A DNA stretch of 39,667 nucleotides, taken from the NCBI GenBank assembly GCA_045805065.1, contig JBJMMA010000193.1, positions 1-39,667 of the forward strand, written 5' to 3'. This DNA comes from Bdellovibrionia bacterium. Lineage in GTDB: Bacteria; Bdellovibrionota; UBA1018. Positions within the stretch are counted from its first letter, which is position 1; the number at the start of each line of letters is the position of its first letter. The notes below the pieces were generated by a model that saw only the letters and a program-made list of their open reading frames with translations, made no database searches and was not told the origin of the DNA. Of this stretch, positions 319-9,433 are shown in pieces. Both the position numbers and the translations under genes were made by a program.

Positions 319-1455
319 TCAACGAGAGGCCGCTGTTTCGGGCTTCAAAAGCGATACATTTCCGCTATCGGACGCTAGCTTCAATTGCTCGCCGCCATCA
401 TTCACCATTCCCATGAGGCGACTAAACGGACGGCGAGATGCTTTTTCCTGCAGCAGTCCTTGATAGCCGCTCGGGAGAATCAGAGGAAAAGCACTGAACA
501 CTCTTCCTGAGCCGCTTCTTAGATCCACCTCAGCGGAGAAGCTGCTTGGAACGGTAAGCGAGACGCTTCCGGAATTGGATTCAATGAGTGCCTTATCGAC
601 AAAGGACCATTCTCTCATTTGCGCAGAAACGGTCCCCGTCTCTGTACGGCCACTGATGAAGCCCGAAGAATCCGCGATCGTCACATTTCCTTGGCGTGTG
701 TGAAACTCGATGCGTCCTTTAAGCTGTTTCCCATCAATTGCTCCGGCTTTCGTGACGTAGAGCTGATCACCTTCAACGTGCGAGACTTTGACTGCACCAG
801 CGTCGCTCTCAACATAAATCTGCGGGCCATCCACCTCGGAAATCTCGACATTTCCCGCTCCTCCCATGCATCGAACGGAGGAGTGAATGGACTTTACGCG
901 AACAGTGCAAGCAGGGCACAAAACCGCGACGGTTCCTTTTCGAACTGATTCAATCTCGACAGCACCCTGTGTGGAGCGCACCTCAAGATTTGCGTTCCAA
1001 CCTTTGATAATGACTTTTCCACTGACTGCCCAAACTCTCAGTGAAAGACTGGAGGGCGCTTGAATGTGGAGATCCATTCCGACCTGTGGAAGGTTTCGCT
1101 CCTTGAGGCGCTCTTCGATTTTCAGGCCGCGGCCGTATTCAGCGGAAACCTCGATGTCTTTTTCGACGTTTTTATATCTAACGTCTGTATAAGAAAAAAC
1201 GCGGTTTGCTTCTTCTTGAGATGCGGCTTGAACTTTTCTGAAAGCTTTCAGTCGTACTCGGTCCTGAGACCAGCCATCAATGGTGATATCCCCTCGAGCG
1301 TTGGTGATTCGAAGCTCACCCAGAGATCTCAGTGGAAAATCGCGCTCGATCGTATCACTGAAGGTTGCGGCCCCCCCGTTCTGGGCCAGAACTCCGCCTA
1401 GGATCCCGGCTAAAATCGAAAATACGAGACTTTTGCGCGTTACAAGCTTGAGCAC
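319..1455 (-). CDS. Secreted DUF4097/adhesin-type beta-strand repeat protein
   Basis: Signal peptide; repeated 'S/T-x-x-G-x-V/I-x-I' beta units. Confidence 0.75.
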   Translation of the reverse strand: MLKLVTRKSLVFSILAGILGGVLAQNGGAATFSDTIERDFPLRSLGELRITNARGDITIDGWSQDRVRLKAFRKVQAASQEEANRVFSYTDVRYKNVEKDIEVSAEYGRGLKIEERLKERNLPQVGMDLHIQAPSSLSLRVWAVSGKVIIKGWNANLEVRSTQGAVEIESVRKGTVAVLCPACTVRVKSIHSSVRCMGGAGNVEISEVDGPQIYVESDAGAVKVSHVEGDQLYVTKAGAIDGKQLKGRIEFHTRQGNVTIADSSGFISGRTETGTVSAQMREWSFVDKALIESNSGSVSLTVPSSFSAEVDLRSGSGRVFSAFPLILPSGYQGLLQEKASRRPFSRLMGMVNDGGEQLKLASDSGNVSLLKPETAASR

Positions 1456-1528: not shown

Positions 1529-1557
1529 TTGTTTTTCATACTGCGCTGCGTTATTCT
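1529..1557 (+). promoter_or_regulatory. Putative sigma70 promoter for the structured RNA
   Basis: TTGTTT-N17-TATTCT; predicted start near 1565. Confidence 0.45.
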
Positions 1558-1627
1558 CTTTCTTAGGAACAGTTAACAAGCTTAGCCCACGGAGATGGGC
1601 TCTAGAAGAGGGTGGTTACCCATACCC

Positions 1628-1728
1628 CCTTTGATAAGGGCAAACCGGCGCGAAAGGCCGGGACGCAAAGCCACGGGACTACGAGCTGACCTACCCCGAT
1701 CAGTTCTTGTTAGCCGGGCTGCCAAAGG
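1628..1728 (+). ncRNA. c-di-GMP-I (GEMM-I) riboswitch aptamer
   Basis: GGGCAAACC-stem-GAAA-stem-GGGACGCAAAGCC...TAGCCGGGCTGCC; P1 CCTTTG/CAAAGG; G20/C92-equivalent bases. Confidence 0.92.
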
Positions 1729-1826
1729 AGAGGATGAAGATAGGACCAGAAAGGTCCGACCTAAAATTCAAAGGGGGGTCCCCCAACCAGCGAGAGCTGG
1801 ACGAGCAAGACCCCTCTCTTCTAAAA

Positions 1827-1871
1827 GAGGCCCGGCAGTGTACGAGAGCACTGCCGGGCCTCGCTATTTTT
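1827..1871 (+). terminator. Intrinsic terminator
   Basis: Perfect 14-bp stem GAGGCCCGGCAGTG/CACTGCCGGGCCTC followed by gcTATTTTT. Confidence 0.85.
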
Positions 1872-1895
1872 AACGCGATCTGTTATCGATCGGGC

Positions 1896-2570
1896 GTGCC
1901 GTTCAACGACCTTCTGATCACCGAGATTTTTCACAGCCTTCAGGGCGAGACCTCTCTATCCGGGGTTCGCTTCGCTTTTATTCGCCTGACGGGCTGCAAT
2001 CTTCGCTGTGCCTATTGTGATTCCGCCTATGCCTTTAAAGGCGGCCGTAAGATGAGCGTTGAAGAGATTCTGGATACGATCCGGCCTTATCAGGTTCAGC
2101 ATGCCCTCCTGACCGGTGGCGAACCCCTATTGCAACGCCAGACTCCTCGCCTGGCTCGTGCCCTGGTGGACGCAGGCTATGAAGTCAGCGTTGAAACTCA
2201 CGGCGAGGTTTCGATTGAGGCGCTTGCGCCGTTCACTCGGATCGTCATGGACGTGAAAACGCCTTCCAGCGGAATGAATCGCGGCGGCTACGAGAAGAAT
2301 CTCCGTTTCTTGAAGCCTACGGACGAAGTGAAGTTCGTGATCGCATCCGAATCGGACTATGCCTGGGCTCGGGACCTTGTTCGGTCGGGCAAAATCCCGA
2401 CCCGCGAAATTCTTTTCTCCCCTGCTGTGCCTGCACTGGGCTCACCCGGCAAGTTTCCCGGAGTTGAACCGCGCTGGCTTGCTGAACGAATCATTGAAGA
2501 CCAGCTTCCGATTCGAATGCAGCTTCAACTTCATAAGCTACTCTGGGGTGCAGACCGAAAAGGGGTCTGA
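1896..2570 (+). CDS. queE: 7-carboxy-7-deazaguanine synthase (radical SAM)
   Basis: EIFHSLQGE, RLTGCNLRCAYCD, LTGGEPL, LQLHK; GTG start at 1896 chosen because the longer ORF runs through the RNA. Confidence 0.88.
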   Translation: MPFNDLLITEIFHSLQGETSLSGVRFAFIRLTGCNLRCAYCDSAYAFKGGRKMSVEEILDTIRPYQVQHALLTGGEPLLQRQTPRLARALVDAGYEVSVETHGEVSIEALAPFTRIVMDVKTPSSGMNRGGYEKNLRFLKPTDEVKFVIASESDYAWARDLVRSGKIPTREILFSPAVPALGSPGKFPGVEPRWLAERIIEDQLPIRMQLQLHKLLWGADRKGV

Positions 2571-3707: not shown

Positions 3708-4424
3708 ATGCTCCTGAATCACAATATTCGACCTGTGAAGTGTTTTTTGAAGAGGGAATATCTCTATAATCTGGAGGCCCACCATGGTGAGTATGAAGAA
3801 TGCCACCTTTTCGCGGTATCCAGCATCAAGGGTCGTGCCCTTGGATTTCATGCGTTTCTATCAACCGGGGCCGTGTTTTATCGACTCCCGTTGACGGCCT
3901 TCGTCTGGAAGAAAGGCACTGAAGACGTTCCGCTCGACTTCCTGCAAACCTGGGATCAGCTTGGCTATCACATCTCGGTCATTGAATATGACTTCCTGAA
4001 AGAGCTCAACGGCAAGGTTTTCATGAAGAATGGCAGGTTTGAAAAGTGCGAGTACATGTTTACCGTCGACTTTTGTCACCCGGATCCAGGTTATCTTAAT
4101 ACGACGTTTGTTGAATCACCCGAAGACCACAAGTGCCAGCACATCGTGAAACTGGCTAACGGCCATTTTGGCGCCTATCCCAATAACAAGATTCTTTGGG
4201 AAGAAATCGCGTTCGTCACGAAGCAGATTTCCGGAAGGCCAGATTACAAGGTGAATCGTCAGAAGTTTCATGCCGAGAACGGCGACTGGATGACATCCAA
4301 TGACGATCGGTTCTTTTATGATTTTTTAAAAAAGGATGAAAGCCATGTCTCGAGCAAGCTTGTGGTTGCAGCAACGGAAACTTCGGAATCCGCAGCAGCA
4401 CCCGCTCAATCTGAAACGCAATGA
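3708..4424 (+). CDS. Hypothetical protein resembling a conserved phage hypothetical family
   Basis: GAGGA RBS; motifs REYLY..HHGE, GAVFYRLP, FTVD..HPD, HKC.H...L..G.F.A.PNN (family recalled from memory). Confidence 0.7.
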   Translation: MLLNHNIRPVKCFLKREYLYNLEAHHGEYEECHLFAVSSIKGRALGFHAFLSTGAVFYRLPLTAFVWKKGTEDVPLDFLQTWDQLGYHISVIEYDFLKELNGKVFMKNGRFEKCEYMFTVDFCHPDPGYLNTTFVESPEDHKCQHIVKLANGHFGAYPNNKILWEEIAFVTKQISGRPDYKVNRQKFHAENGDWMTSNDDRFFYDFLKKDESHVSSKLVVAATETSESAAAPAQSETQ

Positions 4425-6755: not shown

Positions 6756-7718
6756 TTACGCTATGCGTTTTCCGGCGCGACGAGGCTCTGCTTCTTCTTG
6801 TTCTTCATCAGCTTCCTCATCTGAGGCTCCGCGTCCTTTGTTCAGAACAGCATCCTCATCGTAAACTGAATCCACTTCAATCTCGCTCTTGTCGTAATCG
6901 TTCGTCGTGGTCTCGTTCCAGAGGGTATCGAGAGCCGCGGAATAGCGATTAATGAGGTTATAGAAGATGCCTTCTGGAGCCAGAACCGTGTTGATCAAGC
7001 TCATGCTGACCGACAGGAAAATCCCCAGAATCGATTTAATCATGGCCATGGAGATGCCTTCGAGGAACATACCCATGATGCGCTTGGTTTCTTCGATCTT
7101 CTGAAGGTCCATGTCACGGAGCTCAGGAAGGCCCTTGGCGATTCCCAGGAAGGTACCGAAAATACCACCGATGATGAACAGGCCTGGAAGGATGTTGATC
7201 AGCTCGTTGAGCAAGCTGACCGGGAATGCTCCCAACAAGCGATTAAAGAACGGGTTGGTATCAAACACGCTCTTGGTCAGATCGACCATCTTCACTTCAT
7301 GGCTATCGCGCTTGAGGTAGCGGGTCTGCTTGAGCGTATCGCTCATCAGGCGAGCAACGCCTTCCTCAATCAGGAACACGCGATCCGTGAGACTTGCGAT
7401 ATGATCGAAGTTGCGGCGCTTGTACTTGTTTCTGAGCTCAAAGCACTCATGAAAGGTGTGCTCAAGAATCTGCCGAGTGATACGGTGAAAGGAGCTCACG
7501 CGAAGAGATTCGTCGGCATAAGATTCGGCCACATAGCGACGAACGCGCTTTTCGAACTCGACCGCAAATTTATGTTCGGATCTGGCGACATACCAGATCA
7601 ATACGCGAGTCATGACACCCACGACGAACGTTGCTCCCATGAGAGGGATCACAAGCTCTGCCACGAATCCCAAGACATGGTCCACCAAGAAGCTGCTAAT
7701 CGGATCCATTGTCATCAT
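6756..7718 (-). CDS. MotA/TolQ/ExbB-like 3-TM ion-channel subunit
   Basis: LPGLFIIGGIFGTFLGIAKGL TM motif, three hydrophobic helices, acidic tail. Confidence 0.7.
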   Translation of the reverse strand: MMTMDPISSFLVDHVLGFVAELVIPLMGATFVVGVMTRVLIWYVARSEHKFAVEFEKRVRRYVAESYADESLRVSSFHRITRQILEHTFHECFELRNKYKRRNFDHIASLTDRVFLIEEGVARLMSDTLKQTRYLKRDSHEVKMVDLTKSVFDTNPFFNRLLGAFPVSLLNELINILPGLFIIGGIFGTFLGIAKGLPELRDMDLQKIEETKRIMGMFLEGISMAMIKSILGIFLSVSMSLINTVLAPEGIFYNLINRYSAALDTLWNETTTNDYDKSEIEVDSVYDEDAVLNKGRGASDEEADEEQEEAEPRRAGKRIA

Positions 7719-7732
7719 AAAGTTTTATCCCC

Positions 7733-9433
7733 TCATTCGTCTTTCAAATTGAATTTAATGATAACTCGTTGGCTTTTCTTGCAATCGAAGTTCTGGCAGT
7801 AATCGCCACCGCTCGATGGCGTGCGACCAGGAATGCGCTCGGTTGCAAGGAAGCTTCGTCCCGTGACTTTAACCAATGGGAGCAGTTTGCTTTGATGATC
7901 AAACTGCATCAGGCGCGTATCGAAGATCGGCTCGAAAATCGATTTGGCGCGCTGATAGCTCAAGTCCATATTGAAGTTCACGGCCGCGCGATCCTCCTGA
8001 CTGAGACTGGATGGATCGACGTATTTGCCTTTATAAGTCGGAGACGCAAAGCCCACGATTTCGACGTTGGCGATGCGGTTTGCGATCTTAGGATCCTGGA
8101 ACAAGCTCTTTGCGTATTCAGGCATGAACTTTTTCAAGATCTGAAGCATTCCGCCCTTGAGATTTGCGCTGCCCGTATCAAAGTACTCGTTCTGGAAGTT
8201 AATCGTCACGTCGCCGGTCTTCAGATCGACGTCCGCATTGATTCCGGCCTTTTTGAAGTTCTCTTTGATTCGGTTAGCCAGCTCTCTTTGCTGATTGAGC
8301 TTAGCCAAGGTACCCTGAAGGTTCTTAGCCAAAGCATCGTTTGCCTTCTGCAAGGAGCCGATGTCGCTTTGGTACTTACCTTCTACACCTTTGAGCTGCT
8401 CACGATTGGAGGCCAGCTCACCCTTCAGCTTGCCGAGCTGTTCATTATAAGCTGCATTTTGGCGCTCAACCGCTTCTTTGTAAGCTTTCTCCTGAGCAAG
8501 CTTTGCAGCCATGCTCTGGGTACCGCTCTTCATGCCGTTCTCGTATGCGGCCTTCTCTTTTTGAAGCGCGTCCTGATGTGCCTTCTCGAGATCGCCAATC
8601 GCCTGGTTATACTTGGCATCCTTATCGCTGAGTTGAGCGATGAGTTTTTCTGCCTCACGATTCTTCTCCAGGATACTCTGTTGGGCAGCCTGAAGCTGGT
8701 TCATGTAATTGCTGTTTTCCTGTCTCAGAGCATCGATCCGATGCATGCTATCCGCTTTCAGCTGAGCAATCTGCTTTTCAGCCTGCTCTTTGTTCGCTTT
8801 GTTTGAGCGGTAAGCGTTCTGGACTTCCTGGATCTGTTGCTGAAGCTTGTTCTCAATGCCAGCAATCGTTTGATTGTTGGCATTGATGACGGATTCTTTC
8901 TGCTGAATGGAGCGATCCAGAACCTCGATCTCATTGTTACGCTCAACGATGGCCTGGTCACGCTCGACAATCGCAAGATCACGCTTTTTCAAGCGCTGAG
9001 CCGAGACAAGGTTCGCGCTGATGACGTTCTTGACCATTTGCTGGTATTGATTGAGTGCTTCTTCCTTCTCTTTTGCGTCACGAGCCTTTTTCGCGGCCTT
9101 GGCGCTCTCGTCCTTGGCCTCGGTCTCGAGAAGCGAGAGCTTGCCCATGAGCTCCTGATACATCTGGATCTCATCGCTGGAAGCGCCGTTCTTTAAGTAA
9201 TCCTTATTTAATGAGTCGTAAGCTTTGATCTGCTTACGAAGCTCTTCAGCTTCGGTTTTTGCCTGTTGGAGCTGGGTGTATTGCGCAATCGATACGGTTC
9301 CGCTTCTGAGGTTAGCCACCACATAAAGAAGCAGGAACACGACCGAGAGAACCAGGAACAAATCGCTGTAGGATGTCCAGTGGTTACCACCGTGCTCGAC
9401 CTTGGTTTTAATCTTTTCGTAATTAAGATTCAC
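7733..9433 (-). CDS. MotB-like protein with long coiled coil and OmpA-like peptidoglycan-binding domain
   Basis: N-terminal WTSYSDL+TM; ~350-aa heptad-rich region; YFDTGSANL, IVGFAS, NMDLSYQRAKSI. Confidence 0.8.
   Translation of the reverse strand: MNLNYEKIKTKVEHGGNHWTSYSDLFLVLSVVFLLLYVVANLRSGTVSIAQYTQLQQAKTEAEELRKQIKAYDSLNKDYLKNGASSDEIQMYQELMGKLSLLETEAKDESAKAAKKARDAKEKEEALNQYQQMVKNVISANLVSAQRLKKRDLAIVERDQAIVERNNEIEVLDRSIQQKESVINANNQTIAGIENKLQQQIQEVQNAYRSNKANKEQAEKQIAQLKADSMHRIDALRQENSNYMNQLQAAQQSILEKNREAEKLIAQLSDKDAKYNQAIGDLEKAHQDALQKEKAAYENGMKSGTQSMAAKLAQEKAYKEAVERQNAAYNEQLGKLKGELASNREQLKGVEGKYQSDIGSLQKANDALAKNLQGTLAKLNQQRELANRIKENFKKAGINADVDLKTGDVTINFQNEYFDTGSANLKGGMLQILKKFMPEYAKSLFQDPKIANRIANVEIVGFASPTYKGKYVDPSSLSQEDRAAVNFNMDLSYQRAKSIFEPIFDTRLMQFDHQSKLLPLVKVTGRSFLATERIPGRTPSSGGDYCQNFDCKKSQRVIIKFNLKDE

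Follow-up and report, generated by a model that had tools for sequence, protein, structure and literature searches.

A stretch of about 300 nt between a divergent DUF4097 gene and queE raises the question of what a c-di-GMP-I (GEMM-I) aptamer does where it appears to belong to an RNA of its own. The window, meaning the whole stretch of 39,667 nt analysed here, comes from a Bdellovibrionia bacterium (NCBI GenBank assembly GCA_045805065.1, contig JBJMMA010000193.1) whose genome of 4.2 Mb is 94% complete. The initial annotation took the RNA to be a c-di-GMP sponge homologous or analogous to merRNA, an RNA of Bdellovibrio bacteriovorus proposed to store c-di-GMP. A total of 109 aptamer loci were examined; those that contained N or ran into the end of a contig were left out, so that the subset varies from count to count, and because the genomes are related, counts over RNAs and loci are not independent. 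The features of the locus are collected in Table 1.

Table 1. Features of the RNA locus and its flanking genes (positions in the window)
Feature	Position	Strand	Details or basis
Divergent DUF4097 gene	319..1455	-	PF13349; conserved upstream neighbour, one cluster of 41 loci
Predicted sigma70-type promoter of the RNA	1529..1557	+	-35 at 1529-1534, -10 at 1552-1557
RNA gene	1564..1871	+	both ends inferred, from the promoter motif (5') and the terminal hairpin (3')
H1, 5' hairpin	1584..1601	+	loop with ACGGA (1589-1593), a CsrA-type A(N)GGA site; loop counts, fold
Outer helix P0, 5' strand	1603..1616	+	alignment, RNAalifold, folding
Switching strand	1625..1634	+	pairs with 1723-1728 (P1) or 1768-1777 (anti-P1)
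c-di-GMP-I (GEMM-I) aptamer	1629..1726	+	RF01051, 71.4 bits
P1 3' strand	1723..1732	+	AAGGA (1725-1729), CsrA-type, Shine-Dalgarno-like; predicted to be paired when P1 forms and open when anti-P1 does
Spacer hairpin H3, variable	1743..1757	+	absent in several families
Anti-P1 strand	1768..1781	+	p <= 0.05 against shuffles in most f1 and f10 loci
Outer helix P0, 3' strand	1812..1823	+	alignment, anchored pair counts
Terminal hairpin and U-run	1827..1871	+	15 bp (1827-1862); probable 3' boundary
Predicted extended -10 of a separate, nearly leaderless queE transcript	1881..1889	+	TGnTA motif
queE, 7-carboxy-7-deazaguanine synthase	1896..2570	+	TIGR04349, 240.5 bits (below the cut-off of 300); matches to solved QueE

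Architecture and distribution of the RNA

The promoter-like motif of the initial annotation holds up on comparison. TTG-N16/17-TAnnnT sites (N17 in the window) occur in 58 of 91 related loci against 0.22 in shuffles, a figure that is partly circular since the pattern was derived from the same 91 loci, and a simple promoter scanner made no call at the site. Given this promoter, transcription should start near 1564. Across the promoter spacer and the -10 (1536-1557) lies an inverted repeat, ACGC-N3-GCGT, which is conserved in homologs and may be an operator or other regulator site. An inverted-repeat matrix finds 37 sites above 13 bits in the genome, and its best match is the promoter site, which was itself included in the training set.

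The region 1565-1871 folds with z = -6.29, and none of 100 shuffles was as stable. The architecture is conserved in an alignment of 62 RNAs of the class (A1), from which RNAalifold gives a fixed order of H1, P0, the aptamer, a variable hairpin, the UUCAAAGGGGGGUCC block, the P0 3' strand and the terminal hairpin; pair counts were taken from anchored scripts and RNAalifold. The parts listed by the initial annotation were confirmed, including the hairpins GGACC-agaaa-GGTCC (1743-1757) and CCAGC-gaga-GCTGG (1787-1800) and the long-range enclosing helix (1603-1612/1812-1823), but the 5' hairpin at 1584-1601 and a competitor of P1 at 1768-1777 had been overlooked. The stem sequences of H1 vary among RNAs. 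An extension of the P0 5' strand is predicted to pair with 1625-1629 when P1 is formed and, in the alternative anti-P1 fold, with bases near 1810-1815. In the P1 fold, the G-run of the anti-P1 strand is predicted to pair instead with about 1809-1817, forming hairpin H4, which in the window carries an inserted hairpin (1787-1800).

What had been described as a 14-bp terminator does exist as a hairpin, with 15 bp; because 4 nt separate the stem from the U-run, it departs from the textbook form of an intrinsic terminator, and its efficiency in that role is uncertain. At least two T in the first 3 nt follow 3 of 46 terminal hairpins in family f1, compared with 14 of 16 in f10. In the segment after the stem (1863-1871 in the window, and in homologs) CC precedes the U-run in 41 of 54 sequences, often as CCA (21 of 54), possibly as a tRNA-like end or for weak end-to-end pairing. 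Pairing between the 3' tail and the 5' end is weak, with -2.44 kcal/mol for a sequence's own ends and -2.08 for permuted ones (p = 0.02, 54 related non-f10 sequences).

The sequence ACCCC is kept in the P3 loop (1693-1697) of 64 of 71 RNAs and recurs in the loops of inserted hairpins in f10 loci such as L026, L056 and L094; it could pair with the anti-P1 G-run in cis or act in trans. For a P3-loop pseudoknot, an alignment judged by eye gave a mixed picture. A conserved micro-ORF was not found in the class, and a 92-aa frame at 1595-1873 is not conserved. Beyond the aptamer, six Rfam matches between 1400 and 2100 (E 0.12-7), all far below their cut-offs, were taken as chance.

A scan with the Rfam c-di-GMP-I model, which the initial annotation had suggested for its complete GEMM-I aptamer, bears out that assignment. 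The score given in Table 1 stands against a cut-off of 35, covers model positions 1-87 and is the sole match in the genome. The window scan labelled the aptamer as the clan sibling c-di-GMP-I-GGC at 62.1 bits; this label was rejected in view of the higher RF01051 score and of an A in the window at the place of the G in the GGC model, which makes the aptamer one of the ordinary type. By number mapping, G1639, A1667 and C1722 are presumably the ligand contacts G20, A47 and C92. These are the contacts named for c-di-GMP-I aptamers (PMC4744006), and a G20A variant has been tied to cGAMP (PMC7288161). The G at position 20 in this sequence points to c-di-GMP, not cGAMP, as the ligand.

RF01051 matches were found in 94 of 127 genomes of this largely uncultured class of Bdellovibrio-type bacteria, with one copy in 93, and in 46 of 60 relatives. 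Across the phylum they occur in 37 of 141 genomes, among them 10 of 10 from f20 and none from the large families f15, f17, f21 and f22. The sole genome with three aptamer copies (G039; loci L057, L058 and L004) includes one locus, L058, in which a second module seems to have entered the RNA, separating the outer-helix strand from the aptamer. Named genomes scanned with a sequence pattern hold at least 120 loci. Among the 80 listed with titles, 11 match the 3' flank profile, ten of them titled Bacteriovoracaceae, Bdellovibrionales, Oligoflexia or Bdellovibrionota and one Lysobacteraceae. A Lysobacteraceae-titled record (L191) carries the full RNA of this class together with queE, and its title or bin may be wrong; a Solibacteraceae record (L147) holds tandem c-di-GMP-I-like aptamers.

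Two predicted folds competing for one strand

The UUCAAAGGGGGGUCC block is the complement of the P1 5' strand, and for every one of 11 positions in the resulting anti-P1 helix, between 64 and 71 of 71 RNAs can form the pair (anchored counts). Compared with shuffled downstream sequence, the match reaches p <= 0.05 in 41 of 45 f1 and 14 of 17 f10 loci; the corresponding counts are 3/10 in f20, 0/9 in f2, 0/4 in f23 and 0/6 in f13. Two-sided changes in this helix are few within the class (anchored counts, 71 RNAs). P1 itself keeps a mismatch, which is replaced by a pair in only 9 of 71 RNAs and is C-A in 44, creating GGA.

Constrained folding gave the P1 fold a higher energy than the anti-P1 fold in 70 of 71 RNAs, with a median difference of 4.2 kcal/mol and one of 1.6 kcal/mol in the window, in energies that omit tertiary contacts. 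Since a conserved strand is predicted to out-compete P1, the ligand would flip the fold. The ligand-incompetent anti-P1 fold would be the ground state, and binding could pay for the gap of 4.2 kcal/mol, given a KD of about 1 nM as cited in PMC3627812. The same sign was obtained at loci of the merRNA type, in f20 (10 of 10, 1.9-7.1 kcal/mol) and in f23/f27 (5 of 5). In f2, where sites were chosen automatically, P1 was favoured in 6 of 7. Five ordinary riboswitches favoured P1 as well, a weak control, as the one member of the RNA family in the same test did likewise. The P1 sequence was rejected as a lineage marker, the same P1 being present in riboswitches of Fictibacillus and Carboxydothermus.

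Between the two folds, the median probability of the outer helix is 1.0 with anti-P1 and 0.35 with P1 (71 RNAs). The probability that AAGGA is unpaired is 0.22 in the P1 fold and 0.97 in the anti-P1 fold of the window (medians 0.16 and 0.82, 71 RNAs). The terminal hairpin stays the same, with a change of at most 1 bp, in 68 of 71 RNAs; a role as anti-terminator was rejected, as the hairpin shows no state dependence over the 71 RNAs. The single-copy gene of about 300 nt is very probably that of a stand-alone, two-state c-di-GMP-binding RNA.

Neighbouring genes and the standing of queE

Of 46 evaluable f1 loci, 41 have queE starting no more than 260 nt away, and tRNA-Cys also neighbours the RNA locus. 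In 50 of 74 loci (4.8 in shuffles) a TGnTA motif precedes queE by 10-30 nt, while an SD-like sequence is present in only 5 of 74, a pattern typical of a separate, leaderless transcript. The extended -10 is kept where queE is 0.3-1 kb away from the RNA (L012, L015 and L016). In five loci queE is displaced by 0.55-1.4 kb, and in L025, L032 and L061 tRNA-Cys stands directly behind a retained RNA. Among 11 aptamer-negative genomes checked, the DUF4097 gene and queE are adjacent without the RNA in G029, G131 and G217; of the others, two have a queE truncated where the contig stops, and no orthologue of queE was found in six.

With a separate -10 motif for queE, independent losses of the two units and a 3' hairpin predicted in either fold, the RNA is likely not a queE leader. 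On the folding predictions and locus comparisons, neither a ligand-dependent terminator nor a ligand-dependent ribosome-binding site was found for a conserved downstream gene. The initial annotation had named control of queE by c-di-GMP as the alternative, one that would be unusual as well.

Downstream of the gated AAGGAG, the window has an AUG at 1734 in the reading frame of queE, from which a read-through RNA would encode an extended protein of 278 aa; such AUG codons were found in 2 of 69 loci. A 287-aa extended QueE frame is not conserved. Elsewhere in the window, a gene pair at 6756-9433 on the minus strand gives weak ZorA/ZorB model matches well below cut-off, encoding a MotA/TolQ-like protein and a coiled-coil OmpA-like partner. 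A 238-aa frame at 3708-4424 on the plus strand, with no NCBIfam or Pfam match, is followed by a fatty-acid-desaturase-like gene.

Probable kinship with merRNA and possible outputs of the predicted switch

In B. bacteriovorus, merRNA is an attack-phase RNA of 445 nt for which storage of c-di-GMP has been proposed, a role stated to be unvalidated (PMC3627812). Its read coverage in attack-phase Bdellovibrio is about that of all protein-coding genes together (PMC3627812; 10.1101/617340). Use of its promoter is described in 10.1101/2025.05.17.654431, and the RNA is also treated in PMC11323537. According to PMC3627812, it is not conserved outside the Bdellovibrio lineage. In the literature outside subscription journals, no test of merRNA function and no link between merRNA and CsrA was found. 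Families f20 and f23/f27 were treated as merRNA-type because the f20 locus L050 carries the published P_merRNA promoter text (supplement of PMC12622784, by-eye comparison) and an upstream gene is common to 11 of 15 loci. Of four f23 loci, three have the upstream gene of the merRNA-type loci, and all four have the promoter repeat of the present class (loose pattern).

Both kinds of RNA have a single-copy c-di-GMP-I aptamer, a sigma70-type promoter motif and a 3' hairpin, in an RNA that is free-standing or, here, very probably so. The P1 core, CUUUG/CAAAG, is common to them too, and some 40 nt downstream both carry an anti-P1 strand, for which folding predicts an advantage of 2-7 kcal/mol in 10 of 10 f20 loci. 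No conserved regulated reading frame lies downstream here, queE being adjacent but apparently separately promoted and separable. The RNA is likely to work like merRNA and probably shares descent with the merRNA gene. In a tree of 45 aptamers, Bacillota aptamers fall inside the group. By contrast with the shared features, merRNA has 445 nt compared with about 300 nt here, and its neighbour is an Mrp/NUBPL-type gene in place of DUF4097 and queE, with queE downstream in none of the 15 merRNA-type loci. Short reading frames occur in merRNA-type loci but no conserved one here, and GGA gating is predicted here but not there. An alignment of the flanks with merRNA had been suggested in the initial annotation; outside the aptamer, the 5' and 3' flank profiles match 0 of 15 merRNA-type loci, compared with 8 of 8 held-out f10 loci. 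In the merRNA-type loci L033, L034, L042, L043, L045, L046, L048, L049 and L052, a frame of 10-15 codons stands upstream of the aptamer, with a good ribosome-binding site and a Pro-Lys-stop end, often Pro-Pro-Lys-stop. Such frames could possibly encode a stalling peptide.

Other known systems resemble the RNA in part. With RF01051 riboswitches it shares the full-length aptamer, the G/A/C ligand contacts and a P1 strand exchange as in ordinary expression platforms. Unlike them, it is without a conserved regulated gene, its exchange leaves the terminal hairpin unaltered, and it occurs as one copy per genome at a fixed locus. CsrB and RsmX/RsmY/RsmZ also have A(N)GGA in a hairpin loop and at a single-stranded site, their own promoter motif, a 3' hairpin and CsrA in the genome. 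Here, however, the CsrA sites are predicted and number two or three, not six or more (six GGA motifs are described for RsmX), the RNA is fused to a ligand aptamer, and the host has a FliW-type system. The Vc2 small RNA of Vibrio cholerae likewise places a c-di-GMP-I aptamer in a discrete small RNA whose P1 is closed by the ligand (10.1101/617340). In Vc2 the aptamer forms the 3' end and guards against decay, whereas here it is internal, inside the outer helix, and followed by a stable hairpin.

A loop of the CsrA type is conserved in H1: A(N)GGA is present there in 51 of 71 RNAs from six families, compared with 4.7 in shuffles (maximum 9) and 3 of 71 in an internal control hairpin. A(N)GGA is the Csr/Rsm consensus; affinity suffers most when GGA is buried in a helix and also falls with additional nucleotides in the loop (PMC4005645). 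In the window, an A-U pair folds over the first A of the H1 loop site, and this site is not gated by the fold switch. The gated P1 strand has ANGGA in 44 of 72 RNAs and lacks it in 28 of 72, and AAGGA may be conserved there solely as a strand of P1. Outside the aptamer core, ANGGA is modestly enriched (mean 2.9 compared with 1.7 in shuffles, 47 f1 RNAs). The merRNA-type loci are rich in it (5.4 vs 2.9), and their sites were not more open in the anti-P1 fold (1.4 vs 2.0). GGA gating was rejected as a phylum-wide rule, being unsupported in f20, f23/f27 and f2, and so was the terminal-hairpin loop as a CsrA site, with ANGGA in just 4 of 72.

The genome encodes CsrA and FliW downstream of flagellar hook-associated genes (operon G000:C164, locus L031), as well as seven flagellin genes. 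The seven flagellin leaders contain 8 CANGGA motifs against 1.5 expected, spread over four of them, three leaders being without CANGGA. CsrA of B. bacteriovorus represses a flagellin leader with a GGA hairpin in Bacillus subtilis (PMC13443453). CsrA is present in 125 of 141 genomes of the phylum, including all 37 with the RNA, and its co-occurrence with the RNA is uninformative because it is so widespread.

The leading, still tentative candidate function is that of a trans-acting, c-di-GMP-gated decoy for the translational repressor CsrA, in which the conserved stand-alone two-state RNA is taken as real and the CsrA output is the uncertain step. Without ligand, 1768-1777 would capture the P1 5' strand, the outer helix would lock and AAGGA at 1725-1729 would be open. 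With ligand, P1 would form, AAGGA would be buried, and the small hairpins H2 and H4 would form instead. At low c-di-GMP, the H1 loop and AAGGA might be offered to a CsrA dimer, CsrA would be drawn off flagellin mRNAs and flagellin would be made; at high c-di-GMP, one site would be left and CsrA released. Conversely, bound CsrA would favour release of the ligand. An allosteric decoy in the full sense, where the aptamer of a riboswitch acts by capturing and releasing CsrA and not through a gene in cis, is a rather doubtful proposition. No riboswitch with release of a regulatory protein as its output was found in the literature outside subscription journals. The decoy has to contend with few sites, the 28 RNAs without a gated AAGGA, the ungated H1 site and the lack of GGA gating in merRNA-type loci. 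In addition, the host already has FliW as a protein antagonist, not all flagellin leaders carry the motif, two-sided anti-P1 changes are few, and the switch is unsupported in f2 and f13.

The main rival, a reversible buffer that stores c-di-GMP as proposed for merRNA, is somewhat unlikely. The anti-P1 strand would then tune a tight aptamer to the cellular range and allow release, without further output, while the H1 loop would do no more than stabilise the RNA or bring in CsrA to have it degraded. The median gap of 4.2 kcal/mol corresponds to roughly 900-fold at 37 C, the same gap is predicted in 10 of 10 merRNA-type f20 loci where GGA gating is absent, and a storage-and-release model has been published as speculation (PMC3627812). 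Yet a buffer requires very high abundance of the RNA, and it leaves the sequence-invariant outer helix, the conserved H1 loop and the conserved C-rich loops unexplained. As for the initial annotation, its stand-alone, merRNA-like RNA is supported, but the anatomy, with a CsrA-type loop and an anti-P1 strand that makes a ligand-incompetent fold the predicted ground state, does not point to a passive sponge.

Readout through exposed strands other than CsrA sites is quite unlikely. An open AAAGGAGG could bind ribosomes or a target RNA, C-rich loops could pair with a G-rich ribosome-binding site, or the two folds could differ in decay, as Vc2 does with its ligand-controlled stability (10.1101/617340). 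This reading fits the ACCCC of the P3 loop, further C-rich loops in inserts and an outer helix predicted to open when P1 forms, as well as the short reading frames that follow such sites in merRNA-type loci. On the other hand, only 11 of 73 loci have a start codon behind the SD-like strand, the peptides are unrelated, and the C-rich loop may do nothing more than pair with the anti-P1 G-run in cis. An ordinary cis riboswitch, with c-di-GMP controlling read-through into queE or its translation and thereby queuosine synthesis, is highly improbable. The nearness of queE, the poor U-tracts of f1 and the in-frame AUG at 1734 would suit it. Against this, only 3 of 71 RNAs show a difference of more than 1 bp in their terminal hairpin from one fold to the other, and the -10 motif of queE, the independent losses and the rarity of the in-frame AUG likewise count against it.

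In these RNAs the aptamer helix has a conserved, energetically tuned competitor, together with a conserved CsrA-type loop. As a compact probable relative of merRNA in 94 of 127 genomes of another class, the RNA also supplies comparative data that had been missing. If the CsrA decoy proves true, it would couple c-di-GMP directly to flagellin translation in predators of the Bdellovibrio type, give the merRNA class a mechanism and provide the FliW-type Csr system with an RNA antagonist.
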